Under the pieces are notes generated by a model that did no database searches, had not been told where the DNA came from, and saw only the letters and a program-made list of their open reading frames with translations. The translations under genes were made by a program, and so were the position numbers. A stretch of DNA of 64,000 bases from Catajapyx aquilonaris (Eukaryota): contig KZ538026.1 in NCBI GenBank assembly GCA_000934665.2, positions 62,001 through 126,000 of the forward strand. The letters are read 5' to 3'. Of this stretch, positions 6,703 through 54,515 are shown piece by piece (position 1 is the stretch's first letter; each line of letters starts with the position of its first letter).

Positions 6703-6801
6703 TATATAAAGAGACACGAGTGAGAGTTTCTCGCTTACACTCATCAAAAGATTTTCATCCAAGCTACTGGTTGATTGCGGTAAACAGACTAATATGTAAG
6801 T
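6703..6801 (+). promoter_or_regulatory. Putative TATA promoter and short first exon of the secreted-peptide gene
   Basis: TATATAAA at 6703-6710 and a consensus donor GTAAGT at 6796-6801. Joining 6795 to 8237 gives AT+G ATG AAG, an in-frame ATG ATG. Confidence 0.55.
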
Positions 6802-7876
6802 AACCATTAATTATTATCGAATATACACTATTTTTTTAAATAATTCAATATTGGCCATTAGCATGCTGGCCTTCTCAACATTACTAATAAAAATTTTATG
6901 GCAAAGATGCAAATAAAAGTTGCCATAATTATTGCAGACAAATGCATGTTGACAGAACATGTGACATACACATCTGGATATTTCCATGCAAAAAGTATAC
7001 AACAATTTACAATGTATACAAGAATTTCTCACATACTGTACATTTAAGTTAACAACACTGTTTACTTCCAACGTGGCAGGAATGTTTTGTTCTGAGGTTC
7101 CGCATAAATCTTAATAATTCCACAAGCAAGGTCTATAGTGTTTCTTATTCAGTGAACTGTGGTTTCTATCACATAAGAACTCAGTAACAGTGAGTGAAAA
7201 GTACTTTTATATTTATCTTTGCACTGTAATGACTTATTCAAAATAAAAATTCGAACTTTTAAACACCATCATTGTCGTGTAAGTCACAATTTTTAGACCT
7301 TTTTATATAAAAAAATTCAGGTACAAAGCAAAAATCTAAGAGTAATGTTGATATTAATCCTTATATTCTCACTATGCAGTAGTACCCTTAAAATAATGAC
7401 AGTTTTTGGGTAATTTTTGTCTGAAATTTTCTTGGCTGTTTAATTTTTGTCGCTTGGATGCTACTGTCACTATTGTTTCCCAGTACGTAGTTAAAATGGC
7501 GCTTAAATTAGCAAAAATGAAGAAAAATCAAATAGCAAAGTTAAAGCAAGAAGGAATAAGTTAGAGCTGGTTAAGATAAGTGCATTTGAAGGCAACTATA
7601 GAAAAACCCTCGCTTTGGTCACATTTTTTCTATGGAGCAGGCCAAGAAGGCCACCTTCTTCTTTCACTTTTTCTAGGCCCGCGACATGGGGTGGTGGAGG
7701 CCTAATTGTTAATCCTTCCAGACTTACAGCCAGTGATGATGCCTACCCCCGATTCGTATGCACCACCCCCATCCGTTCCTCCGTTTTAAGGTGCATTCAC
7801 ATATCCATGAATCCATATTAGAAGCGGTTCAAAATTCGACCACAATTGATTATTATGCAGTTGAATTTTCCATTAT

Positions 7877-8164
7877 AGCAACGTTCCAAACAAAGGGTCA
7901 CCAACACACAGCCACGCTCCAAACAAAGGGTCACCAACATGCAGCAATGTTCCAAACAAAGGGTTGCCAACACTGCACTGTTCCAAACAAAGGGTTACCA
8001 ATACACAGCAACATTCCAAACAAAGGGTCACCAACACACAGCAAAGTTCCAAACAAAGGGTCACCAACACACAGCAACATTCCAAACAAAAGGTTACCAA
8101 CACTCAGCAAGGTTCCAAACAAAGGGTTACCAACATACAGCAATGTTCCAAACAAATGGTTGCC
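7877..8164. repeat. 33-bp minisatellite, about 9 copies
   Basis: Tandem units of consensus AGCAACRTTCCAAACAAAGGGTYACCAACACAC. One unit is 2 nt shorter and the last is truncated. There are no unique spacers. The array explains the repetitive ORFs on both strands. Confidence 0.95.
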
Positions 8165-8237
8165 TGTCATATTGGATCAATTTAAAGGAATCCCGTACCC
8201 TGCAAATCATGATCCAACCTTCTGTCTTCTCCGCAGG

Positions 8238-8459
8238 ATGAAGTTTCTCCTCGCTGCCATGCTAATTGCATGCCTCCTCCTCCATGTCCAGCCGGCACCT
8301 ACCTGGCCGCAGTTTGGCAACGGAGGACAAAGACAGGGTCCAGGGAACGGACAGCAAGGGCAAGGTCGCTACAACCGCTTGTGCCGCGTACTGAGCCCTG
8401 ACAATTACGCCTTCCCCGGCAGAGCCCCTTACCCATCACAGCCAGTGTGCGTTTATTGA
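8238..8459 (+). CDS. Small secreted peptide precursor of unrecognised family (73 aa; 74 aa if the intron-split ATG is used)
   Basis: Translation: MKFLLAAMLIACLLLHVQPA PTWPQFGNGGQRQGPGNGQQGQGR YNRLCRVLSPDNYAFPGRAPYPSQPVCVY. It has a classic signal peptide and GC-rich codons in AT-rich flanks. A strong acceptor TCTGTCTTCTCCGCAG ends at 8236, and AATAAA lies at 8535-8540. Confidence 0.75.
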   Translation: MKFLLAAMLIACLLLHVQPAPTWPQFGNGGQRQGPGNGQQGQGRYNRLCRVLSPDNYAFPGRAPYPSQPVCVY

Positions 8460-8906
8460 ACTTGCTTTTTATTAACTCAGTTCCAACATGTACAACATTA
8501 CATGAAATGGGAAAAACAAGATCGCACCACTGCGAATAAAACCTGTGAGAATCTGATAACAAACCTTGACTAGGAGGAGTATTTTTTTTTTGTTGCACAT
8601 TTCACAGTTGACGGCACGAGGAACCCATGAGTTTCTGAGCAAGGTACATAGATAAACGCGACGATAATTGGAAGTTAACCTCCCAGCCAGTATCTGCCAC
8701 AAAATTCTGTACATTATATTAAAGCTGAAATTCTCACATCCGATTAAAATTCCTCAACATTTCTATTTCAGTGTAAGACAACACAGTAATAAGATGTTTT
8801 TGCCTGCGTACACTCTAACATCGGAAATTATTTGTGCTATTTCTACCTTACTCGGAAATTGGATCGTACCTTATGCTACCTTTCATCTTGATTGTCGTTT
8901 TTTTTT

Positions 8907-11900
8907 TCATTTCCAAACTTTGATGACCCCATCCCTTGAAGCGGAGACAACGAACAATTGGCTGGCCTGGCAGAGCGCAATGTCGCTGATGCAGTCGTGA
9001 TGACCCGCAGCAGGAAGCTCAGGCCGAGGGGACTCTTCCCCACCTGCCGGACCCCCTCGTGAAGTATAGTTTGGACGGGGTTTCGTATAAATCTCTTGGA
9101 TCACTTCCGTGCCATCTATTAGTCGAGTCCTGAAATAAAACAAGTGCCAATATGTGTAAAACAACCGTTCTATCCCAAGAAGAATGCTGCACTTACTGGT
9201 ACTTATACATGGCTGTCCCTGGAATGGCTGGAGGATCATTAGCTGCTGGAGCCATCACATAGCATCCGTTAGGCGAACCCATATCCCAGAACCTGAGTCG
9301 CATGTCAGTCCCGCCTGTGATGACGAAGGGAGTCTGATCCCCTCCCATCCCAAAAGTCATGGCGCACACGCTGTGAGGTGATGGCTGCTGCTGCGACAGT
9401 GCAGGAGACGGGCTGGCCCACAGTGCCGTCTGCCTACACTGCGTCTCCATATCCCATACACTAACTTCATTATTGCCTGCAACAACACATAGTCAGTCAC
9501 ATGCAACGTTGTTTCATGAAAATGCAATTATACCTTGAACGGATGAGGCGACCCACGGCTGGCTGGCCACTGGATGCCTGGCAAGTCGCCTCACACGTGC
9601 ATTTCTAGGATGAATCACAGTCGATATGGGGAGCTGGAATCGGAGGTCCCAACAAACGTGGGCTCCTCCAGAAGTTCCGACAGCAAGCCAGTGCTGCCTG
9701 GCATCTGTGCAGAACGACGTAACCATTCCATGTCGGAGGTTGCTCTCCAGCTTCCAAGCGTTAAAAGGCGAGCGAAGGTCCCAGCCCACAAGGTATCCAT
9801 ACGCTGTTGCGTAAACCAGCACAGACTGGGAGCCAGAGTCGTAATAATTCATGTCTACTGCGCAGCCTTCTTCGCACATGTCAAGCTGCCTGGAGTACAG
9901 GAACGACACCTTGCTGCTGTGGCTTTCCATTCTGCGAATCGAGAATCAGGTAATCACTGACGCAAATTATTCAAGCTGTTGTGGAACATGACATAATATG
10001 GGGCATATACGCAAATTCAGGCAATAATTAGAATTTCGATCACTCCATATTGGAGCGTCATGAAAACCTGCAAGTGCGCCTGCAAAGTGCACTGCGGATC
10101 TTGCTGTCACACACCCTTTACAAGAGGGCTTTGATTCAAAGTCGTTTCGGTTCAATTAGCATTGCAGATGTGCTGCAAAGCCCTGTCCCTTTGAACTCAA
10201 TGAGGAAGTAATCACTCTGGAGGCTCAAGTTGGTTCCCCGGAAGAGAGATTTTTGCCGAACAGTGTTTTGTTAAGTGATTGCCTGCCAAAACTTTACAAA
10301 AACATTCTAGCTCACATTCGTTACAAACTCAAAGCGTAATGACCACTTGAAATAGTAAAAATTGGAATAAAAAGTTGCGTAAACTTGTCGTCAACCAAAT
10401 ATTGCGCATCAGATCATCACTCACCGGAAGACATGTATGCTTCCATTGTCGGCTGCTGCAGCTAGCGACTGGTGATTGTGGCAAACGGCAAGGGAGGTGA
10501 TGGGTCCTCCAACCCTGTTGTAAACGTGCCTTGATCTGTTGGCAATATTCCTTCCCTCCATCCGTCCGCAGTCCCACAACCGCACACTCCCATCGCTAGA
10601 TGAGCTCGCAAACACGGGAGTTCCTGGTACCACGGCCAGGCGAGTGATGGACCCACGATGCTCATGCAGGTGTGCCACCAGCTGACCTGTGGAAAAAAAA
10701 AACAAGTGGTAGCTCATATCGTAAGCAAACCAACTCCAGTTACCTTTAGGACACCAGCCCTGCGGTGCTTTCTGCGTGTCTCTACTCCCAGATCCTGCTC
10801 GGTCTGCCTCTCGTCGTGCCAACACGGCCATGGCATACTCTTCGCCTTTCTTCTGCAGTAATGTCTGGAGCTCGGCTTTGCATGGGGGGCATCGTTTCTG
10901 CACAAAGGTTTGGGCAGGCACCACCGCAGTGGGCTCCACCGGAAATTCATCTGGGGACTCCTCAACAGTTCCGGGGTTGCTCCCAGCCGATCCAAACATA
11001 TGCTGCCACTCCGCATTCATTGTAGGCGAATGAGGTGGTGCTGCGCGACGAGGAACCGGTGCTGGATCTGCGGCAGTGGGCGGCACCAGGTCACGACCTC
11101 GCAGTGGAACTATGGAGAGGTCAACCAGGCCGTCTTGGCTGCGTTCAACAGCAACTGCTCGGTGGCGATGGGTCTTGACGAGATGTTCCCGCATGGCCAG
11201 TAAGTACTCCTCAGCAGTCTCGTTCATACCTGGGGACAGCAAAAGATTGCTCACATTTGCACTGGTATATTGCGTCACTGATTACCTTCTGACGCAAGCC
11301 TTCTGAATAGGTTGCGCAACCCAGGAGGTATCTCTGGTGGAACTCCTCGTGTCCTTGCCCTCCTCACGTCTTCTAATGCTTGCAGAAAGGCTGCAGGGTC
11401 TGCACACTTCAGAACCGAGTCATACACAGTCCTCGGTAGTGGCGGACGTAGAGCTGACAACAGTATAACTTCCTTGTCTGCCTGAATCACTGGCCGCTCC
11501 AAGTAAGGACGGACTAAACCTAGGACTTTGCATTGCACATCGACCAAGTTCAGAGTACGTGCGGCCGCAGACACAAACCCAGCCATCGCCTGCCTCACCC
11601 ACACGCTCGGGTGAACCAGAAACGGTGCCGTTTCTGACAACAACTCGTACAATGCTAGTTTCTGCAGTAGTCCCAACTCGGTCAAAGTTGCCATCGCGTT
11701 GATTGACTTGCACATAACAAATTCCTCTGGGTCGCTCAAGCCTTGCTGCAACAAGGGCTTCAGTATGGACGAGCTTTGCCAGCCGACATATGTTGCTACT
11801 CCAACGATGCAATTGAAGAAGGAACCACGCAGGTCCTTATCTCCTTTGTCATTCAGGAATGTAATCATATGCGACAGCAACACATCATTGGCCTTCTGTC

Positions 11901-13751
11901 GCCCAAAGAAAACACACAGTCGGGTTATGCCGTACTCCATAAGCACACGTCTCACAATGTTGTCAGAATCGGTCAACATGCTGCACACAATTACTTCAAA
12001 CATCTCCTGAAGTATGTGCAATTCTGACTCATAAGTCGGCTGCGGTGTGTCATTTGGCATCGCAGTGTACGCCAGTTGTGTCAACTGCAGAAAACGAAGC
12101 GCAGTTTCGGCCAGCAACGCAACATCCTGCGTAAATGCGGCACGTACAGACACAGACTCATCGTGCGTTATGTGCTGTAGACTTGGAAGAATGTACTCTG
12201 GGAATATATTCGCATCACTTAGAGGCACTGTCTTCACGCAAGAGAGACAGCGGGTCAGAGTGTGTATTGCAGTCACACGGACCCGAGGGAGGCGATCGCT
12301 CATCAGGTGGAACTGCAACAACAATTAGGTTTAACCACATGAAAGTAATTGCTGCCAATGTAACACCTTACCACATACGGCAGAATCCTATCCAAAATTA
12401 TGTCCGAAGGCAGATGCTGGGCCAGCTCCTGCATGACCTCGAGGCAGGCAAGCTTCGATCCGCAGTGATGTAACGCTCTTACGCATGAAGTAACCAACGT
12501 GGAAAAAAGGAGGAGACCCTCGGGTTGACCCTTTGTCCCGGTTTCTCCTCCGCCATTCTCCTTCTCCTCTCCCTCTTCTTTCGGTGGGCCAAACATCTGC
12601 ACAACGTTCTTAATATCCTTTCGCAAACGGCTGATCTTTTCATCAGGCGACATTATCGGAGAGGCGCTGAACATGGTCATGTACGACTGGAAGAAGGTGT
12701 AGAAGTACTCTGGAAACACCCGACCCTTCTGCTGGGCCAGGTAGTCCTCTGCTGACAACCGCACATTGGCATCCCGTTGCATCATGTGGCCCAGAAATTC
12801 CTGCAGATGATTTAATAAGTTGCGCTCAATTAATGACATGATGTACTTACCCTAATTTCTGGGTCGTCGATCCTTTCCAGCACTTTCGTTGGTGTGTACT
12901 CCCCGCTTCTGTATGCCAACAACTGCGAGAAATCAAACGGCGGATGCCCCTCGGTGAACAGCTCCGTTAGAGCACAACCAGCTGAGAAAATATCCATCGC
13001 AGGCGTTAAGTCCCCCCGTTTGATTCCCTCTTCCGGAAGAATAACCTCCGCCTCCGTTTCCGTCGCTTCCGAATGCGACTCGAGCGTCCGGATGAATCGC
13101 TCCGGTGCGATGTAGCATGTCCTACGCCTGGAGGTGTCGAAGAAAAATGAGAAATCGGCCGGGTTGTCCTCAGGCAAATATGTGGGCTTAAACGGCGCAA
13201 AGTCGGTAAGCAGCACCCAATTCCAGCTAGTCACCATCACATTCTCTAGCTTAATATCGCCGTGGCAGACGCCGAGGCGGTGACACTGGCTGAGTGCGTA
13301 CAGGACCTGGAATAATTCCGGGTGATTAAAATAAATTCAACGAGTGTGTACGGTGAGTACGAACCTGGAATGCGATCCATTTCTTCTCGACTGTTGATAG
13401 GAACGGACGTGTGCTAATCCGGTCGTACACATTGTGCTTTACGTACTCCCGGATTATCAATCCGGCTTTGTCCGTCAGCAATGCTTTTCTGTAGCACAAG
13501 CAGTTGACGGCCGGAGCCAGCTTGGCCCCGATGTCCTCCAGCCTTTCCTTGTACGTCTTAAGCGGCAAGGACGGGTCGTGTATGGCGAATACTTTAACCA
13601 CGATGTACCCTTCCTTCGACTTGGCCCGTACCACCTTGAAGAACCTGGTGCTGCCCAAACTTGCATCGTACTGAACCTCTGGGAAGTCTGTCAAGTAGTG
13701 TTCCACTGGGAATATCTGCGACGGAGCTATGCCCACCAGCTGGTTACCCAT
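8907..13751 (-). CDS. PIK3R4: Phosphoinositide 3-kinase regulatory subunit 4 (VPS15/p150): pseudokinase, HEAT repeats and WD40 domain; 9 coding exons, about 1315 aa
   Basis: Exons spliced by hand at GT-AG sites: 13751-13365, 13306-12851, 12800-12372, 12312-11286, 11229-10744, 10686-10425, 9931-9534, 9476-9197, 9129-8907. They total 3948 nt in one open frame. Family motifs: N-myristoylation start [65 protein letters not shown]40 repeats, C-terminus [10 protein letters not shown]. Confidence 0.97.
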
Positions 13752-14413: not shown

Positions 14414-15545
14414 ATGCAGCACGACGACGTAAGCATACCCAGCTGACCGTAGCCTAACCAATGGATCAGTTTCTAACCACTTTTACCATCCGTTTTGACA
14501 GGTCATATGGAGCTTGGTGAATAAAGGCTTCTGCTCATACAAGTCAAAGTAAGCAGCTCTTACCTTTTCAATGTGACAAAATTTGATTGCTAAATTGATA
14601 TTGCAGGACAGCCACGCAGACGTTCTGTCGGAATGAGTACAACCTGACCGGAATGTGCAACCGTTCTTCATGTCCGCTGGCCAACAGCCAGTACGCCACT
14701 ATCCGCGAGGAGAACGGGATGTGCTACCTTTACATGAAGACTATCGAGCGGGCAGCGTTTCCGTCCAGGCTGTGGGAAAAGGTGAAGTTGTCCCGTAACT
14801 TCGAGATGGCCATCCAGCAGATCAACGAGAACCTGCTGTATTGGCCTGGGTACGTGCGCCAGAAGTGCAAGCAGAGGCTGGTCAAGATCACGCAGTATCT
14901 CATCCGAATGAGAAAGCTTTCCCTCCGTCGGCAGAAGAAGTTGGTTCCGCTTCAGAGGAAGATCGAAAGGCGGGAGAGGCGGAGGGAAGAAAAGGCCCTT
15001 ATAGCTGCCAGGCTTGACAATGCAATCGAGAAGGAATTGCTCGAGAGACTTAAATCTGGCACGGTAAGAACTGTGTTGGACAGTTATGTACTTCATTACA
15101 TTCCGTTTTCATTTTGTAGTATGGCACCATATACAACTTCCCACAAACTGCGTTCGATAAGGCGTTGAATGCGGAGGAAGTGAGCGATGAAGAGGAAGAG
15201 GAGCTGGAGGAGGGCGAGAAGGAAGAGGAAGACATTGACGCTGAAGTAGAACGGGAGCTGGAGGACGAGGTGGAGGACCTTGACACAGAGTATGTTGCAG
15301 CAGATGATTTTGAAGAAAGCGATGAAGATATTGAGGTATGTCATATGCCAATCACTTGGGGTTTGAGCAAATTGAAGTCTCTTTGGGTACCTAACTGTAA
15401 TGCATATTTTCAGGATGCATATGAAGTTGATGAGTCATCTGATGAAGAAGTTGCTCAGCCTGTCAAAAAGAAGCGCACGCATGTTTCCATCGAGTATGAA
15501 AAGGAATTGGTTCAGCCTGCTGAGAAATTAAAATTGACGCACTAA
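14414..15545 (+). CDS. MAK16: Protein MAK16 homolog (60S ribosome biogenesis factor), 5 exons, 288 aa
   Basis: Exons 14414-14428, 14502-14548, 14607-15063, 15120-15335, 15414-15545 total 867 nt with GT-AG introns. Motifs: [91 protein letters not shown], then an acidic tail. AATAAA at 15566-15571. Confidence 0.97.
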
Positions 15546-18500: not shown

Positions 18501-21500
18501 CGGACGCGCTTTCAGAATTTGCCTGAAATTTTGGACAGACATTTAAGATGGTGCGATTTTGCTTTTTAAGCAAGAGCCGAATTTGGTCCTCATGTATTCG
18601 TAGGCAACATGACGTGATTTTGAGCAATGAAAAAAAAAATTTTTTTCCACTGTTGACGGCAGCCCGACACGTCTTGAAATATTTGATCTTACAGCCTATC
18701 TACAGTACGTAAGGCTTTTGTTTTTATGGGTGTAGGATTTAAAGGACACAGATTCACACGGATATCATAGTTAATTTTATCTACAGCCTATCATTTTTTT
18801 TTGTAAATATGATTCGCCCGTTTGTTTTGAAGATAAAGTCAGGGATAGGTTATTTTCAGCAGCAAAGTTTTATGCATGCAGGATGCTCTGTATGTAAATC
18901 GCTTTTCCGCGTCACACTTGGGATCCTCACGAAAAAATGTGGAAAGACAATAGTAGTGGTATAGTTAATAGTCATATCTCTCATGACGTCATCACGTCTA
19001 AAATTCGTACGCCACAAAACCACTGGTTTATGTTAGTTTTTCTTATATGTATATATTTTTTTTCTTGTTCTTCTTAAAGAGCTAAAAACACGCATTGTCT
19101 ATTTAGAAGTCACGATTTTTGGATCGTTCAGAAACTATTGCCTATACATAACAATAGGGGGAGGGAAAAGTCTATTTACATCCGATAGTCTCTTCTTTGA
19201 AAAGGAGAGAGGATCTCGTGTTCAACACGGACGCGGGGAAGGACATCATGCAAAGAGACGCTCACAGTTGTGCAACGAATATAACACCTCGAGGGAAAAA
19301 AGGGTCTAAGTGTTCAGGGATTAAAATTAATACAAACAAACAACAAACTAAAATATTGTGAGAACGATTTTCCCAATATTGACTAGTGGTCAACACAACA
19401 ATGTGGTTTACACATCAAAATAATAACTAACACATGTCTGCCTAATTATGTGTGTTTTATATTTTTTCTCTCTCCCTCTCGCAAGCTGATGATTGGTCTT
19501 ATTTCTTTTTTACTTATGGTAACCCAGCCCTTAAAATCCATATTTTTTCGTGTGTCGTTCGGATGGAAAAGGGAAAGATGAAGAGACAGTTGAGAGTAAA
19601 GGTTTTTTTTTTGGCTTCGAAGTACACCAACCCAGCGACATCCTTTCTACCTCTTTTTTGGGGGTTTAAATATATAACCTGGTTTTTATCCCAATAGCAC
19701 ATTTTTTTCTTCAAAAAAAATGTCAGAAACGAACATGTGACGCGTCTTGTTTTCGCAATGTTTTTGCATCCGTTCGCGTGGTCTCGGGTGCAAAAATGCG
19801 ATGTGAATTCGAGCAGGTTGCACTTTTTTTTTCTTCTTCAAAAATAATAATACACACAAAAAAAAACACCGAGCCCGAGCCGCAACGTTGCCACTTCAGA
19901 GACAGATTTTTATTTCAAAGATAGCGAAAAAGCACACCCATGGTGTCACTCCTGCGGTTAAAATCGTGATTAAGCACGTGCCTAGACACAATCTGTGGAT
20001 ATTTTTTGGGGGGAGGGAGAAATAGGATTTTGGGAATAATGTGCTCTCGGCATTTTTTTTTGCAATGACGTGAAGCTTGACGCGAAAATAGTTCGCAAAT
20101 ATGTGGAGCCCGATGAATTTCCAGAAATAATTATACGAAATGGCCAACAGCAGAGCCAATTAAATATTATTATTTTTTTCAAAAAAAAATTGTAGAGTTC
20201 GAGTCAACCTTCAAGTACACTTGTTAAAAGTTACTGTACACAAAAATACGCACGATCAAGCAGCGACACCGTTATTTAGGATTCGAGCATTATTATACTT
20301 TTTCTATAATATTACTACTACGTGTAATATACACATCTACACCGCTGCCTTTATAATGATTACGGTTCTCTCATTTTTTTTTCTTCTTCTTAAAATTCTG
20401 ATTAGATATACGGTACCCCAAAAAATTGACCCGTTTCTGAAGTTTCACGATGGCAAAAAGCAGTTGGGCCTCCTTCGTCTAGGAAAGGTCCGTGAGGAGA
20501 TGGTACAAAAATATGCCTTCTATTGCTTCTTTCCCAGCTGAAGGAGGCTTCAATAGTATGTTTTTTAATTTATATATATGACCACCGATCGTAATTCACA
20601 GCCAGATGCGTCACATGTTCGGTCTTTAAAAAAAAGTGGGACATAAAACCTGTCTTTGGCTCCTTCACAATCCAGATAAATAGCCTAGAAGGAGAAATCT
20701 AAGCTCTATATAGACTAAGTACGTCGTTATAATTATTTTTGGTTCAAGGAGAAGTGACGATAGCAACAAGACATGAAAAGGAGTGGGGGGCAGTGGCCGA
20801 TATGTCCTCTTATATACTTATATATTTTTTTCTTTTTTTAAATACAGTACGGTCCCATAGTATACGAGTCTATTCAACAGGGCCGTGAATAATGTTCCTC
20901 GTCTCAAATTGTTCAAAAAAAAAATTTATTAGCGTATAGGAAAAGTTGGCAGAAGACAGAAAAAAGGAGAGGGTTAAGAGCAGGAACACTAACCGCATAG
21001 TTTTTTCATCCCTCATTAACACATTATGATTTTTTTTGCTTATGTATATTTTTTTCGAGAGAGAAAAAAAAGAGTGTTTTGTTGGTTTCGCAAAGCGTCT
21101 CGTCTCAAACAATGGCACAAAAAAATGACACACAACGGATCATATTTTTCCTCTTCAAATATATATAATGAAACAGAAAGAAACGAATTATTTTTCGTTG
21201 TTTTGTTTGGAAGCCGACAAATAAATTGCAAGTCCCCACACCCTATCCCCCCAGACACATACCCAGAAAAATTATTGCCAACAAGTTGCCTTAAAATAAG
21301 ATTTTTTTTTTGTAAAAATCGTGAACTGTTTTGTTATTCTTCACGAAAACACGACGAAGGGGCCAGTGTTCAATGTTATTTTAAGGATAAGAGAAGGAGA
21401 GATAGCGAGAGAGGAAAATAAAGTGAAAAGGTGTGCTCATGTTACGCAGCCATGTTTTTGGTTTCCTCTAAGTTTACAAAAATATTGTGCCTACTATTAT

Positions 21501-24632: not shown

Positions 24633-27600
24633 TCACTGCATCACACACTTGCTCTCGATTTGAGCCTTGATGTCGCTCACTTGGGTTTCTATGGTGTTCT
24701 TCAGTTCTGAAAAGCAAAAAACGGTAATCAGCATGTACAGCAGCATTTTTAGGCCAAGATGGCCGATTTGATTTTGAACTAAAATAAATGGCAGAGAGAG
24801 AGAAAAATTGTGACGGTCCCCACTCGTGAATTCGTCCGCTTCCTCCATCTCCGCCTCCATTGCCAGTTCTTCGGGCGTCTTTTTCTTCCGCATCAGAGGG
24901 TTTGGATCTTCAACGGGTTCAGGAGGTAGTACTTCTTCCTTCTTTTTGATGTTGTACTGGAAAAAATTTGCAATCAAATTATTGGATTTTAATCATTCAT
25001 GCTCTGCGTCCCAAAAAATTATGAAATGAATCCTCATGTCCCGAAACGATGTGTCAATTGTACGTTCCTTATGGGACACCCTGTGGATTTGTGTAGATGA
25101 GGGACAGGTGAGAGTGAAAACGAGCCGTTACAATGGTGCATCATCTCCCTTTGCTGATGCTGCTGCTGCTGCACACAGACGTATTATAGCTCAGCGGATG
25201 CAACTATCTCGGGTTTTGGGCTCGGTGCCAAAGGGGCCAGGGTCTGCCTCCGGATGTGAATTTATTTGGCCCACGTAACCAAAATCGATATTAGAGAGGG
25301 GGGGTAGTATCCACCCCTCGAAAACCCCAGTCCTCTTCCCCCTGTCACATGCCTAATATACATGGGGGGGCCATCAAGTGGGCTGTGGCCGAGCACGTGA
25401 CGCCGACTTTGATGCCAATTAGTGCCCCTTTTTCCACGACTCCTAATTCCAGATGTCCCACCAACCCCCTCCTAAAAAACAGACAAGCCGAAAAAAAGGC
25501 AGAACGAGATGGCTCCCGTGTGACTGAATTTTAAACCACCAAAAAAACCCGTTACACCCACGCATTTGTTATGCACGCCCCGCTGCTGTTTCGCCTGTCC
25601 CCCCCTCAAAAAAAAATCGGTAGTTTTTTTTTTGGAGAGGGTTATGTTGCCATGGTAAACAGTATAGGAGTTTTTGGATTACGCTCTGACCCCAAAATTT
25701 GCATTTATCGCGCCACAGCAGCCTTGCATTACGACAATTTCATGCTCCCCCCCCCCTGAAATCACCACAGCCAAATGGTGTGCACACCTGGAATCCTCCG
25801 CAAGTGAGCGTACCTAGCCCCCCAAATATTCATCAAAGGACCTCGTTTTTTGGAGGGGGATGGGTTGCAACATGACACACCGGGTGACTGCACAATGTCA
25901 AAAGGAGCACTTGTCACTGCCACCTCTTTTTTTCCTCCCCGTACATATAACTGACGGAATGTGACTGTGTCCAGCCAGGCTGAAATTAATTGCACTGCAG
26001 CGTGTTTACAGACCGATTAGATGTTCCTGAGGGGGGAGGTTCTCCAATCCGCTCTATTTGTTGCTGACCAAAACAAAGGGGTGGGCCAAAACTGGCCTTT
26101 CATGTGCCCGCATTTGTAAATCCGTGTGTGCAAACTGGGGTTCCCATTAGATGGACTCCCTCGGTATTTTTGCAGCAACGAGTTGGGAAAATTGGTTCGA
26201 CATGAACGGGGAAAGAGAGAAAACAGGACGACCTCTGTTGCCCTTTGTCTGATTACTAATGCAAATTCGGTACTCAATCACGCAATGTCAAATGGCAGTG
26301 ATGATGATAGTCTGTCAACTAACCCAGTTCAGGTCGTTGTCTCGACACAATGTAAGATTGAAGAGCGACGTTTGAATATTTCATGAACACCTATTAACCC
26401 TATCGTCTAATTTAATTACAAGTAGTATCAATGTTCACGACATCTGTTCTGGATGTCCTTTCAGTGTGTGACGCCACGTTCAATAAAAACAACCTGAAGT
26501 TCATATGGGATGCTGAACCGTCATCTCTTGACAGACTGTCAGAAAAATATTGGAGAATCCCGTTGTAAGTGTTGGTATTGGATCGATTTGCGCTCCAATC
26601 TCTGAGCCAGTGTGCCGGCGTCAGATTGTCTTTTGCAGAGGTCATGCTTAAGGTCTTTGGGGGGCACAGCTGGCCGCAAAATGCATTAATTTCAATACCA
26701 GTGAAGCTCACATGTTCTCCACTTGGAAACCTCCCAAAAAGGAATAAGCCCTCGAGGATTGTTGCGGCCCCGAAAACGCGATTATGCGTGGTATGCAAGA
26801 CCTTAGCACTGTACAGGCAGCACCAGAGCTGTACAGAGGGAGACCGCAAATTCGCACAAAGTATTGGCAACGAGGATCAGCTTTGGCACAAAATAACCAT
26901 GGAGATTTACCAGCTCGTGGGATTCAAACATTGCTGCGGGACAATCACCATTTGACCTCAGCTAGTAATGCTGATTGTTAGTACACTGTACATTAGCATG
27001 TTAATAATAATACTATAGACCAGTACAGGTTAGGGACTGTTCATGAACTGTACACATGAACTTCAATTAAGGATCACGCCCTGCAGTGCCGTATTGATTT
27101 TGCAAAGTCATATTTTCCCCCTGCTGAAAATTTGAAGAAAATGCCTAAGCTCCCCTCAGTAATCCTCGAGCCATCCATTTTTAATGAAAATGCAGGCATG
27201 TCGAGATTATGAGTGATGTCTCAAAAAATCAGCTAGTGTTTTATTTACGCAGCAGGAATTCCTGAAAAGAATATTAAATTCTCTCTCTCTCTCTGATAAA
27301 ATCCAATAAAAGTAAGGCTACAGGACTCACATCAATGTAATCACATTGTGTAGTGTCTGTGTTCTGCTGTCGACCTGATTAGTTCCACTAATAACGACGC
27401 TACGAGCATTTACGTCATCATGTACGTACCTTCGCTGCTGGAAAATGCAGCAAGGAAATGATAAAACGCCACTTTTTTGCATCGAAAGTGTTGGAGGGAA
27501 AGAGGCGTGGCCGCCATCTTTATTAGTCAGATCCGAGCATTTTTCTTCTCTCTCCGTGAATAATGTGGACAATATTCTTCTCGCTCCAGCCCCTGCATGG

Positions 27601-27959
27601 CCTGGAGCCCTGCAGTATTTTAACGCAAATGGCGCTTTTTAGATGCGCATAGTTTGTTTTTTCTGTCTCTATTTCGGAAAGTTATAACAGTGTGTCTCTG
27701 GCTGGATAACCAAGATGGCCGCCACCGCGCGGAAAGAACGCGTCAGAGTTACCAGACGCAGAGTGACGCGTCAGATGGCTCACCTTATCCCTGATGTCCT
27801 GCCTCATATTTTCCCTCTCCTCCTCCATCTTGCGGTGCTTGTCTTTCCGCCTGTCCTCCAACTCCTTGATGGCCTCCAACCGCTCCCTCTCCGCCTCCTC
27901 CTCCTTCTCCTTAGCTCCTTCCTCATCTTCACCACCACCACCTCCACCAGGAAGCGACC
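24633..27959 (-). CDS. cpx: Complexin (synaptic SNARE-binding protein), 5'-partial: last three coding exons, CAAX isoform
   Basis: Exon 27959-27784 encodes GSLPGGGGGGEDEEGAKEKEEEAERERLEAIKELEDRRKDKHRKMEEERENMRQDIRDK. Exon 24956-24824 encodes YNIKKKEE...PNPLMRKKKTPEELA...DEFT. Exon 24706-24633 encodes KLKNTIETQVSDIKAQIESKCVMQ-stop. Splice phases are compatible and the sequence is close to insect complexin. The N-terminal MAAFxAKQM exon was not found in the window. Confidence 0.95.
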
Positions 27960-30900
27960 CTGAAAAGTTCGAACACAATTCAACGACACAAGGAACACCA
28001 ACAATTTCACCACCGTTCCCAATCCAACTCATTATTAATTCTAGAGAGAGAGAAAAAAACGTGTGCTAGTTGCGGGACAATCGAAGGGTTAATAGGAACA
28101 CTCATAATTGCCGAAAATTATTGCAGCAGGGGACGGGGGCCTTCATCAAGGGTGCCTTGTCCTGGAGCACGTCCAGAAAATGGCACCCTAATGCTACAGA
28201 ATGTCTCATTGGACGGACGGAAAAGTTACAAGAAAGTTGGGTGCATGCTGGCTCGACTTCTGACTAATTTTACGTGAGCAATTTGCACAAGCGCTCATTA
28301 GCACAATTGCAGTGAAATGTCTTTTTGTGTCTGTGCTCATACAGAACTCTAATAAGTAATACGCTGGCATCAGAGGCACTTGACGGACTTGAAGCAGCAA
28401 TAAGCCCAGTATATTAACACAAGCACAGCACCTGAGTCACAACATACGCACGTTTATAACTTATTTGAACAGTAACATAGTGTGTTTGCAGATGTTCCAG
28501 TGTTTTTCTGGTTTAAAAAGCTAAATGGAACTGGCCTGTCAATCCTCTGGGTTTGGCACAGCACGACTCTGTCGTGCAAGTGAAATATCTGACCGGACAT
28601 GGCAGAGAATCTCACTGGAACGCACAGTTTTGATCACATCCGTTGGAATCTCCTACTCCAAAGGGGACTAAATCCCAAGTGGGATGGAAATATCATGAAT
28701 ATTCAATTTAATGTAATGCAGTTTTTTTTTCCTCTTCTAAAATTTACTGACTCGTGCCCTGCTCAAAATTCAAATGGAAGTAAGATTTATGCATAAGGTG
28801 ACGCACAGAAAAATCCTCAAGCCTTAATTTTTGTGGCACGTGTTAATTAAAGGCCACTTGATATAACTTTGTACAGTATATATGCATACTTGCCTAGGTA
28901 AGTGTGAGTCGTTAAATATTTTATTCTCGTAAACATACATGCAATATTTTATTCCCCAAGACGATAGTTAAACACGATTTGAATTACTCTTGCTGAGGTA
29001 AAAGAGTCAAATTCTTAACACATCAACTAGTGTGTAATTTTCAAATAAAAATGCCTTAAATGTTTAAAAGTAGCACATGTAATTCATAATTATTTTTTTG
29101 CATTCGTGTCTACTGTCCAGAAGCGTACGTCAGCCTTTAAAGCATTTTTTGACGATGAAATTTTAATTAGCATCTTTCCGCGAGGCAAAAAAATGAATAA
29201 ACCACCATGTACTGACCATGTAGTTTTTTGAAACAAAATAATTCATTTTGTGGCTAACAAGCTCCCCTCTCCCATTTATAATGCATCGCATGTAATATAA
29301 TCAAAGCATGTAAAGGCTACTTAATTGTGTTTGTGATCAGACCAAATTAGGGAACCAAGGCCGCAAAATATAGTTTACCGGGAATCCAACACAACCTTGG
29401 ATTCCACGTGACGTGCCCAAATGCACAAAACTTTCATTAAGTGAACAACATACACTATCCTAATTTTCGATACGTTAAATATTGCTATAGTGTCAATATG
29501 TTCAGTGTGCGTATATGTACGAGCACACACTTACTCTTTATGGATGCCTTCAGTACTTTAAACATGGCGTTGTTGACCATTTCCCAGCCCACACACGGTT
29601 CCGAAAAAAAAAACAACACACACACACAATTTTTGGAGGCAGATGTTGGTCACAATGTCATCCTGATTCCTGTCCGGTACGACCACGATGCTGTCTGACA
29701 CATATCCCTGAGTAATAATCCCAACCAACTTCTATATAAGCAACCTTGAGTATGAAGTTGCTGGTGCGGAAAACTCCGGCACTGCTTTTCGCAACGACAC
29801 AGGTGGGATTACGTGACCAGCCAACGTGGATCTCACCATTTACCGACCTTGACTGCATGGTAATGTTTTCCCCTCCATCTAGGGTAAATGAGGCCAGGTG
29901 AATCACATTTGAATTTATCGTTACATATTAAGGCAACATGGCTACGTTGCCCGTTTGGTACACATTCCGGATGTGCCGCACATATGACTTTGAATTTAAA
30001 ATAATCCCATCATTTTACCTTAATGATTGCAATAAATTAATACGCATGAGTTATGACGGGTAGGTACCAAATTGGCGATTATTTCGGATTAAGGTGCTTG
30101 TTATTAAGCAGTTGCCACCGAAAATTTACGAGACACTAAAAATTAGCTGCTTATATTAGGTGGAATAAACACACCTTTTTAAAGCACTGCGGCAGACGTA
30201 AAAGTATAGGATAAAAAGTGCGAATCATTGACAACTAGCATATCTTACTATCCGAAATTGCCAGTAAGGACAATAAATTCGCCTACTCAGTTTTGGTGTC
30301 ACCTCAAAGCAAAACTAATTGTGGAAAATAATTGCCTAAAATAAACCAACACTAATAAATCTGTAACTGAACCTGACATTGCAATATATTGCAAATTAAT
30401 CATATCCCCAATGCGAAAATTAATTTATAAAAGTTTTCTAAGGCTAGATGCCATATATTTTACAAGTTCAATTAAACCCTTCATTACTGAGTACTCCTTT
30501 AGCAGCAAATGATAATTATGGGAGTGAAGGCAATGAACAAGGCCACACTGCAGGAAAATCGCACAGTCCAGGAAAAACAAGTGTCCAGACATGCAGATAA
30601 ATCTATATACACGGCGCAATAAAATGCATCGGTCGCTGTCCTTATAGGCCATTGCATATGTAGAGCTTCTCTCTCAATATTATCGACAAATAGACTTGAC
30701 AGGTGCATCTCTCGACCGACTTGTCTTCTAGTGAGAGTGACACGATACCCCCCGATATCTGACGGTACCTCACGTTCAGTTTAATATTAAACAAAACTTC
30801 TACAGCGCACCAAACCTGATTGTTATGAGATAGGAGCTACACTATTGATTATTGTTTGCACGGTTTAAACTTACACAGGGTATTCCAGCTTTCCAGTGTT

Positions 30901-51901: not shown

Positions 51902-54404
51902 CAATCTAATAGAAATGCGCGGAACAATTTTGCAAAGCAGCTGAGCAAACCGATGGCCCATAGAGAATTGGCATTGCGAAAATCGGTTGCTGTGTTATGT
52001 CTGTGTGCACGCATCGTCGCAATGCAATCATGATAATGCCGATTTCCTTGTTAGTCTCGGGGCATTGCAGATAAAGTGACACTTAACGCGAGGCTTCCTG
52101 TTCCGATATTTGGAAGGGGGGGACGATATCGACAGGTCTGTCGTGCCATTTATACAGAGTGGTGTTACACTATTACCTCCCCCCCCCCCCTTCCCAAACG
52201 TTGTGTGTTTGCTTTCCAACAGCAGCAGAGCGGCAGCACATCGATTTTCAACAATCTGACCATTTTCCGTTCCTAGATTGGGTGAAATGGAAGAGACTGA
52301 CAAACTATTCATCCTGTCAAACATTAATTGAGGCAACCCCCCCCCCCCTCTCTCCCCATCCCCGGCCATTCGACGGTTATGCGCCGGAGTGACGTGCAAA
52401 CCAGGAATATCAGTTAACGTAATTGGCCAGTCTGCGTTGCGGTGCGTCCATTTGAAAGAGGAGAAAGAAAAATTGAATTTAATCCGAATTACAGTATGTG
52501 CTGAAAAACACTGCAACGCACGTATGTATATGCGGATGGGAACTACTCCGATCTTATCAAAAATTGAACGACCGGACAGTCAGGTACGCAATCACTTATT
52601 TATCAAATATTGAAATTTTAATGCCGGGTCTCTTCTGGATAACATAACCAAATGATAAATTCAGATTGCACCCTCTTATAGGATGTATAAATAAATTTAC
52701 AAAATTCCAAAGCAAAATGTGCGTAACCGATTCCGAATTTATTCAACAACATTTTTTTGATGGACGCCTATAAAACTGAGCCTTCTTAACGGCGAGTTAA
52801 AAGTTAGTCGAAACAATTCATTAATCATCCCGAATATGAAGCGGCCAGTTAACACTCACTTGTCTGCCTGTAAAGCACGCGACCCTGCCTCTCAATTGAG
52901 GCGCATGGGTTGCGTACACGTCAGGATGAACAATTAGCTTTCTCTAACTTCCCCACCCGCAGAGCCAGTCACGAACCTCAAGTACTTCACCAGACCTACC
53001 CTTTGAACCTTTTCATCCAAGACCTTCCCCCTTTTCCAGCAGCAACAAAAAAAAACCCTGTACAAAAATCGATGATTGTTGGAAGAATGCCAATGGCGGA
53101 TTAACGAGTGAATGGTGTATATCAAAGCAAACATGCCGCCTTGTGTACGTGTCGCCTAACGATTCGACTTATAATACAGGTTCATATTCAATTCACTGTG
53201 ACACACACAAACCGACGGAGCAAGGGAACGGTGATGGAAAGTGATTGCCAGGGTCAAAAAGTTTGCCAAACTTTTGCGAGCCAGAGGGGGGGAAAAAAAG
53301 AGGGGTGGGAGAGTTCCACCCGGTTTTTACGGGCTTGCATATAAAGTCAAGGTTCATTCCGATTAAAGAATTATCCGGATGTAACGGATGTTGAATCGGC
53401 GCGATGAAATTTTCGCATGGCTTCATCGCATTAAAAAAGCGGTTAATAAATAGAAGGAAATATGACGAGTGCGCGCAGACCTACTTAGACATAAAAGTTA
53501 TTAAGCAATTAATAATCTCTCAGAGTGGCTCCTGCAAGTAGGTTAAGCACTGTACTAAACCACTTTTGGTATTATCATATACTGTACTGAATTTCGTTAT
53601 ATTTTTTTGTTGGAAAACTTTTTAGACGATAAAATTGCTTAGGTACTGTGCAATAAGGACGCAGTAATATATGCGTACCTTCAGTACTTTATGTTCTTAA
53701 ATAAATTTAAAATATGTTCGAAGCACATTGAAATGAAATTCTATAGAAGCAACCATTGTTGGAAAAGTGTTAAAACTATTTTTAAACCTGTGACAGGCGC
53801 AGTTAGAATAAATCTGGTTTTTTTATACAACTCCTGTTGTTGACAAATGGTTTGAAATCCTTAAATAATAATCAGGTGCTGTAAACCACTATTAATCTAT
53901 GCCAAACATCTTTATTAAGTTACCAGCCACTGTTGGTGAATTGTTCAACAAAAATGATATTGCGCATGCCGTCATTATTTTTTCAAGTATTTTGTAGACA
54001 GTTCCCAACACTTTAAAGAGCAATGTTGTGCAAGAGCAATTACGTTACACCTTGAGTTTCAATTGCTTCATATTATTAGTAAATTGTTCGTAAGAGTATA
54101 AAAACCTGGGCAGCCAGATTTTACGGAAATGGCAGTGTCACTATTAATAAAACTGATTTATTGGCCTATTAACGATTGTGTGATCGACATAAAAATCCAT
54201 CTGCTACTTTTCTTGTTCGTAGCATTATTCGGAACAACAATTTAGAACTTGTTCTCAACCTACCCTAAGAAGTTCCAACTCAGCCGAAGTCTTACCTGCA
54301 ACGAGACAAAATAAAGGACAAAGGTTAGTATACAATCCACTGTGACAACAGCTCGTGACATTGTAACCCACTCCCTGGCACGTGATAATCCCCCCCCCCC
54401 CCCC

Positions 54405-54515
54405 NNNNNNNNNNNNNNNNNNNNNNNNNNNNNNNNNNNNNNNNNNNNNNNNNNNNNNNNNNNNNNNNNNNNNNNNNNNNNNNNNNNNNNNNNNNNNNNN
54501 NNNNNNNNNNNNNNN
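54405..54515. other. Assembly gap (111 N) between a poly-C and a poly-G tract
   Basis: Run of N with C15 on the left and G19 on the right. Confidence 0.99.

Follow-up and report, generated by a model that had tools for sequence, protein, structure and literature searches.

What does the small gene at positions 8238 to 8459 of the stretch described here encode, and to which proteins is its product related? The stretch, referred to as the window, comprises 64,000 nucleotides (nt) of Catajapyx aquilonaris DNA (assembly GCA_000934665.2, contig KZ538026.1, positions 62,001 to 126,000 of the forward strand). A first-pass annotation, made from the letters alone, had described an orphan gene for a secreted peptide with a low-complexity spacer, a basic site and a C-terminal loop closed by one disulfide, and had left the choice between signalling and immunity open. 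On sequence comparison, the gene is a divergent member, with its CVY end and its short G/Q spacer, of an unnamed but deeply conserved insect family.

The CG13639-type family

An exhaustive phmmer search against 1.84 billion representatives yielded 27 matches at E≤1e-3, the best of them at 2.1e-10. A profile built from 17 of the phmmer relatives retrieved 128 proteins at E≤1e-3, including CG13639 of Drosophila melanogaster, a protein of 69 amino acids, and the designation as an orphan has to be abandoned. Conversely, a profile of 101 relatives from which the window sequence had been left out recognized the open reading frame (ORF) of the window with 74.4 bits (E = 1.1e-21). The runner-up among the 2176 six-frame ORFs of the window reached E = 0.24, so that the peptide gene is the sole match and is present in the window as a single copy. 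A candidate paralogue at 52121–52210 (tblastn E = 0.23, profile E = 6.1) lacks a signal peptide, contains a poly-C tract and a third Cys, and was rejected as a chance similarity. The word-index protein search with the single window sequence gave no match, and a search of the ESM Atlas with the peptide gave no usable one.

The protein-coding gene is almost certainly real and a member of the CG13639-type family. Its shortness and the empty word-index search would also suit a chance reading frame with no gene behind it, but this explanation is effectively refuted by homology, profile score and synteny. In addition to the profile E-value of 1.1e-21, the near-invariant residues of the family are intact, the arrangement with the neighboring gene is conserved (see below), and the coding sequence (CDS) forms a GC island, with a guanine-cytosine (GC) content of 58% versus 37% in the putative intron and 34–36% in the putative untranslated regions (UTRs).

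The named members, all of them insects, span Odonata (Ladona), Ephemeroptera (Cloeon), Orthoptera (Schistocerca), Hemiptera (Diaphorina, Nesidiocoris, Nezara, Laodelphax, Homalodisca, Lycorma and aphids), Hymenoptera (Odynerus, Vespula, Polistes, Mischocyttarus and the ants Formica, Cataglyphis and Pogonomyrmex), Coleoptera (Phyllotreta, with a shortened loop) and Diptera (Corethrella, Bradysia, Pseudolycoriella, Musca, Stomoxys, Lucilia, Calliphora, Cochliomyia, Anastrepha, Teleopsis and many Drosophila). No lepidopteran was found among the named matches. In P0022 and P0088, which are Phyllotreta and one further member, the shortened loop is devoid of the P-Y-P segment. In a rough FastTree phylogeny the window sequence is situated on a long branch, and its best identity to a relative within the core is 22 of 30 residues.

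The first-pass annotation could not assign the peptide to any named family, and this observation stands. All named members are labelled 'hypothetical', 'uncharacterized' or, in the case of Corethrella, 'putative conserved secreted protein'. A Pfam scan of the window protein returned 0 families, and a scan of 102 members revealed no consistent family; the scattered weak matches, with DUF1373 in 5 and Moricin in 3 members (E≥0.007), were attributed to signal peptides and low-complexity stretches and regarded as noise. Among solved structures, a match to FAM155A (E = 0.05) was rejected as low-complexity similarity, and no related structure was detected otherwise. A search of the full texts in one library of papers found no paper on the family. 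The CG13639-type family appears to be unnamed and unstudied, though many insect genomes contain its members in the form of hypothetical proteins.

Conserved architecture and predicted processing

The CG13639-type family is defined here by an alignment of 102 sequences (alignment A2), across which the overall layout of signal peptide, spacer, basic site and C-terminal peptide recurs. The anatomy originally read from a single sequence is strengthened by this recurrence. The proteins retrieved by phmmer likewise show this build. At the signal-peptidase site, the −1 column is occupied by A, G, C or S in 93 and the −3 column by V, A, S, G or I in 92 of the 102 sequences. A Pro is located two residues into the mature chain (94/102), and the aromatic motif then typically reads A-P-W-L/F-D/N-x-L/F. 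The spacer, rich in G, Q, N, Y and R, is highly variable in length. At its end, G-[K/R] is found 0–2 residues ahead of the conserved aromatic residue in 94 sequences, with an [RK]xx[RK] pattern ending there in 77. The C-terminal peptide, 26–33 residues long (median 31), forms the extreme end of the precursor in every case and carries the family core C-R-V/T-I-N-P-D-x-Y-A-F-P-G-x-x-P-Y-P-x-x-P-x-C-P-Y/W. Near-invariant positions are N53, Y57, A58, G61, P66 and P69 (window numbering), the last five of which are each conserved in at least 96 sequences.

The translated product of the window (P0001), MKFLLAAMLIACLLLHVQPAPTWPQFGNGGQRQGPGNGQQGQGRYNRLCRVLSPDNYAFPGRAPYPSQPVCVY, has 73 residues, starts with MKFLL and ends with PVCVY. 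Its signal-peptide junction is placed between MKFLLAAMLIACLLLHVQP and APTWPQF. The window core reads SPDNYAFPGRAPYPSQP; Y57, A58, G61, P66 and P69 are intact and Ser takes the place of N53, as it does in 6 of the 102 sequences. Downstream of the second Cys, where 90 of the 102 sequences have a Pro, the window has CVY instead. Only two cysteines, Cys49 and Cys71, separated by 21 residues, are present outside the signal peptide. For the oxidized 29-residue peptide an [M+H]+ of 3343.61 and a net charge of +2 are predicted; the median net charge in the family is +1. Extra X-Pro dipeptides are found at the mature N-terminus of several members (APAP in Diaphorina and Nesidiocoris, QPAP in the window), and such X-Pro repeats resemble the pro-sequences that dipeptidyl peptidases remove from certain secreted peptides of insects.

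The two Cys columns of the alignment change together: C/C is found in 69 sequences, A/W in 28, A/Y in 4 and A/N in 1, while mixed pairs are not found (0 of 102). This perfect covariation is the pattern expected of a disulfide between both residues and points to a Cys49–Cys71 bond in the window peptide. Each of the 33 sequences without Cys terminates in G, GK, GR, GKR or GRR, or in GG, AGR or SG; a terminal Gly, alone or followed by basic residues, is at sequence level the classical signal for C-terminal amidation. The named Cys-less members all belong to the Brachycera or to the Bradysia/Pseudolycoriella group. Corethrella, also a dipteran, has kept both Cys and ends in CPY. Fly members have lost the A-P-x-W motif, retained the C-terminal peptide and gained the amidation signal. 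The fly lineage thus seems to have swapped the ring for an amide as C-terminal protection, an argument for the C-terminal peptide as the functional product. The joint loss of both Cys and gain of an amidation signal provides a clean example of peptide ligands changing their stabilizing chemistry.

From this comparison the product is, with somewhat better than an even chance, a processed extracellular signalling peptide. The signal peptide would be removed as the product enters the secretory pathway, a convertase would cut after G-R (residues 43–44), and the 29-residue peptide YNRLC...CVY would be freed, its ring closed by the Cys49–Cys71 disulfide. The freed peptide would act as an extracellular ligand in the manner of a neuropeptide or peptide hormone, and the N-terminal A-P-x-W piece together with the G/Q spacer would constitute a second product or a pro-region. 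Alternatively, the secreted chain of about 54 residues might stay whole and serve as a non-hormonal protein, for example a salivary protein, an extracellular-matrix component or an enzyme inhibitor. Such an uncut protein would be in line with the conservation of the N-terminal A-P-x-W-x-D-x-L-F motif, the weak basic site of the window and the sialome-style label of one member. It is nevertheless unlikely, since G-[K/R] is kept in 94 of the 102 sequences despite great variation of the spacer in length and composition, and since flies dropped the N-terminal motif, kept the C-terminal peptide and gained the amidation signal.

A receptor ligand is preferred to an antimicrobial peptide because of the deeply conserved short motif, the conserved processing site, the terminal position of the peptide, the fly amidation signal and the low charge. 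An immune effector would be a secreted Gly-rich and Pro/aromatic-rich one-disulfide peptide that is released into the haemolymph on infection, and the composition of the Gly/Gln-rich spacer and the Pro/Tyr-rich loop, the small gene and its strong TATA box are compatible with it. Insect antimicrobial peptides, moreover, can likewise be amidated or begin with X-Pro. However, the core is nearly invariant across eight insect orders, unlike the usual lineage-restricted and fast evolution of such peptides, only one copy is present in the window, the net charge is low, and no Pfam antimicrobial family is consistently found (the 3 Moricin matches at E≥0.007 among the 102 members probably arise from signal peptides). 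An immune function is therefore considered quite improbable, and the alternative that the first-pass annotation had left undecided shifts towards signalling on account of deep conservation, low charge and the fly amidation signal.

Several observations weigh against a processed signalling peptide. The residue aligned with the −1 position in the window is a Pro, which is unusual (6/102) and renders the signal-peptide cleavage site uncertain. Measured by the rule from prohormone processing that calls for a basic residue at P4, P6 or P8, the context GNGQQGQGR, which has none at these positions, is a weak monobasic site. The structure predicted by AlphaFold2 (AF2) with the 102 sequences has a mean predicted local distance difference test (pLDDT) score of 64, with helices at residues 2–15 and 42–51 and coil in the rest of the mature part, and the values of about 58–61 in the mature part signify low confidence. 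As mentioned above, some antimicrobial peptides of insects are amidated at the C-terminus as well. The AFPG motif is absent from 59 precursors of Picromerus lewisi (supplement of PMC10570428), and the neuropeptidome supplement for Tenebrio and Zophobas (PMC9552230) likewise lacks the family motif. Specialists thus did not pick up the peptide from nervous tissue, although a stink-bug relative (Nezara) exists. The label of the Corethrella protein carries no information on neural expression.

Slightly less likely than not is the wider proposal that the locus belongs to an unrecognized, ancient system of peptide hormones or neuropeptides, pan-insect and possibly pan-arthropod in range, with an orphan receptor. 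Its ligand of about 30 residues would possess a 21-residue disulfide ring in most lineages and would be linear and amidated in higher Diptera (CG13639). If true, this would represent a natural experiment in which one peptide-stabilizing device was exchanged for another. The catalogue of insect neuropeptide and peptide-hormone genes, about 50 in number, is thought to be near complete; one more precursor, conserved between mayflies and Drosophila and bearing textbook hallmarks of processing, would supply a further candidate ligand to be matched with orphan receptors. The CG13639 orthologue makes the signalling hypothesis directly testable in Drosophila.

Gene structure and neighboring loci

The TATA box, the end of putative exon 1, the donor and acceptor of the putative 1441-nt intron, the 73-codon ORF and the AATAAA at 8535 were all confirmed by direct reading at the positions given in the first-pass annotation (Table 1). 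Likewise, the ORF list bears out that the gene is hidden in a spurious frame: a 233-amino-acid ORF (7758–8459) spans the intronic minisatellite and fuses the repeat to the real CDS. A gene of about 220 nt can thus be masked by a longer spurious ORF that crosses an intronic minisatellite, which is a lesson for annotation.

Table 1. Positions of the peptide gene, its predicted product and the adjacent Vps15 gene in the window.
Feature	Position	Strand	Basis and remarks
TATA box TATATAAA	6703–6710	+	direct reading
Putative non-coding exon 1	6735–6795	+	start placed about 30–40 nt past the TATA box; 3' end AT
Putative intron, 1441 nt	6796–8236	+	GTAAGT donor at 6796, polypyrimidine-CAG acceptor at 8236
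Minisatellite, 33-bp unit, 8.7 copies, intronic	7877–8160		Tandem Repeats Finder (TRF), 84% matches, score 393
Exon 2, entire CDS and 3' UTR	8237–8560	+	sequence reading
CDS, 73 codons and TGA	8238–8459	+	ATG 8238–8240, TGA 8457–8459; translation and family profile
Signal peptide, residues 1–19	8238–8294	+	cleavage site placed by alignment, ± about 2 residues
Conserved N-terminal motif APTWPQFG, residues 20–27	8295–8318	+	alignment: Pro21 in 94/102, Trp23 in 62/102
G/Q/N-rich spacer ending in G-R, residues 28–44	8319–8369	+	G43-R44, putative monobasic processing site
Predicted mature peptide YNRLC...CVY, 29 residues (45–73)	8370–8456	+	Cys49 8382–8384, Cys71 8448–8450
Polyadenylation signal AATAAA	8535–8540	+	sole AATAAA from the stop codon to 8700
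Vps15/PIK3R4 gene, convergent neighbor	8907–13751	−	Pfam VPS15-like_hel, Pkinase, WD40

Relatives of the gene were also obtained from metagenome contigs, which were scanned with the family alignment. Seven of the 10 resulting loci are true and represent three distinct genes (L001/L002, L003–L005 and L006/L007). The remaining three (L008, L009 and L010) contain stop codons, share only the seed pattern AFPGKIPFP and were rejected. In L004 and L005, as in the window, the peptide gene is followed by Vps15 on the opposite strand in a tail-to-tail arrangement. The stops of peptide gene and Vps15 are located at 8459 and 8907 in the window, and in L004 the peptide gene stops at about 10204, with the last exon of Vps15 near 11645. 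This linkage despite an identity of only 46% between the L004 relative and the window protein supports orthology. It is seen in one of the three distinct relative genes; the loci of the other two end soon past the gene.

The two-exon structure, with splice sites and transcription start placed from sequence, is probable. The octamer TATATAAA occurs in 5 copies on the plus strand of the window, including the one at 6703. A TATAWAA followed by GTRAGT 50–150 nt downstream is found twice on both strands of the window, one case being the 6703/6796 pair. Both the consensus donor and the acceptor are strong. The leader is free of ATG (0 within 6712–6795), exon 1 ends with the letters CTAATAT at 6795, and the 3' end of the intron reads TTCTGTCTTCTCCGCAG, with its last letter at 8236. 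Joining 6795 to 8237 fuses AT and G to an ATG that is in frame with the ATG at 8238, and the product could therefore begin with MMKFLL.

An unspliced gene would have to start near 8210, driven by a weak TTTAAA at about 8183, and would make the TATA box at 6703 and the donor at 6796 coincidental. Further GTRAGT sites at 7190 and 7279 in the intron region would be consistent with such a coincidence. Among the relatives, L001 weighs against the two-exon structure, with a TATA-like AATATAAGG about 38 nt ahead of its ATG and no need of a 5' intron. L004, however, shares the putative two-exon layout, with TATATAAA about 60–70 nt ahead of a putative donor, a short leader and an acceptor about 57 nt before the ATG. 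Given also the strong polypyrimidine-CAG acceptor that ends 1 nt ahead of the window ATG, the rarity of the TATAWAA and GTRAGT pair at exon-1 spacing, and the out-of-frame upstream ATG at 8209 that a start at about 8210 would leave, a single exon is improbable. That ATG opens a 10-codon ORF within the putative intron (8209–8241, plus strand), whose TGA overlaps the main ATG and which is relevant only if transcription begins downstream of 8183. A 5' UTR intron is thus plausible in the window and is not fixed across the family, since L001 seems to need none.

Just past the stop of the relative in L001, at 10230–10400, a tandem repeat with units of about 60 nt (acaacagcacaccgccggtccctatcac...) is found, which makes this a second family member with an adjoining minisatellite; a GTATGT located 18 nt past the stop is a possible donor. 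On the other side of Vps15 in the window, MAK16 (14599–15542, plus strand) is arranged head to head with it, and the distance of about 850 nt from the Vps15 start to the first MAK16 ORF suggests a shared bidirectional promoter region. Two minus-strand ORFs at 24636–24992 and 27685–28065 match Pfam Synaphin (complexin) with E-values of 3.9e-6 and 2.9e-17, respectively, and are probably exons of a complexin gene. On the minus strand at 19517–19837, a weak match to the MOZ_SAS acetyltransferase family, whose E-value of 5.6e-4 misses the Pfam cut-off, may reflect a decayed exon, part of an exon or chance. An assembly gap, visible as a run of N at about 54405–54515, is flanked by poly-G and poly-C tracts, and similar poly-C tracts are located at 52180–52190 and 52335–52346. 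Rfam and tRNA scans of the window found nothing.

Comparison with known peptide systems

Small secreted prepropeptides that carry a disulfide loop at their C-terminus are a well-known kind. As in allatostatin C and somatostatin, a single disulfide-cyclized peptide is situated at the C-terminus of a small precursor behind a basic site, a basic-aromatic-basic stretch precedes the first Cys, and an aromatic residue follows the last one. However, the ring of allatostatin C comprises 6 residues with a PISCF-type end, compared with 21 here, and the site ahead of the window peptide is a monobasic G-R instead of a dibasic one. No sequence match to allatostatin C or somatostatin was obtained, and no such Pfam family is found among the matches of the 102 members. 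By analogy, the window peptide may work like peptides of the allatostatin-C/somatostatin type without being a member of that family.

Sex peptide and DUP99B of Drosophila are likewise small and secreted; their N-terminus is rich in Trp and their middle in Pro, and a disulfide loop forms the C-terminus. Sex peptide differs in loop length and motif and is restricted to drosophilids, whereas the present family is pan-insect; none of the 102 members matches Pfam Sex_peptide at E≤1. Anti-lipopolysaccharide factors and Gly/Pro-rich antimicrobial peptides of crustaceans or insects share the signal peptide, two Cys that enclose about 20 residues, and stretches rich in Gly or Pro. The mature part of anti-lipopolysaccharide factors is far longer, in contrast to a family that is low in charge, deeply conserved and devoid of a Pfam match. 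Peptides of the crustin, penaeidin and defensin type, which have at least 6 Cys and a WAP domain or a cysteine-stabilized fold, were rejected as a model, given the two Cys outside the signal peptide and the lack of a Pfam match. Fliktin (PaOGS36577), a neuropeptide-like insect precursor proposed recently, resembles the window peptide as a candidate outside the classical list of insect neuropeptides, but was discarded as a name for it, because the Picromerus precursor is long, acidic, motif-free and hence unrelated (supplement of PMC10570428).

The closest comparison is that with CG13639 and its insect orthologues, which are homologous to the window gene and have in common with it the signal peptide, the G-R site and, at the extreme C-terminus, the core RV.NP.xYAFPG..PYP..P. 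The CG13639-type fly forms replace both Cys by Ala and Trp or Tyr, end in Gly and lack A-P-x-W, whereas the window peptide keeps both Cys and ends in CVY.

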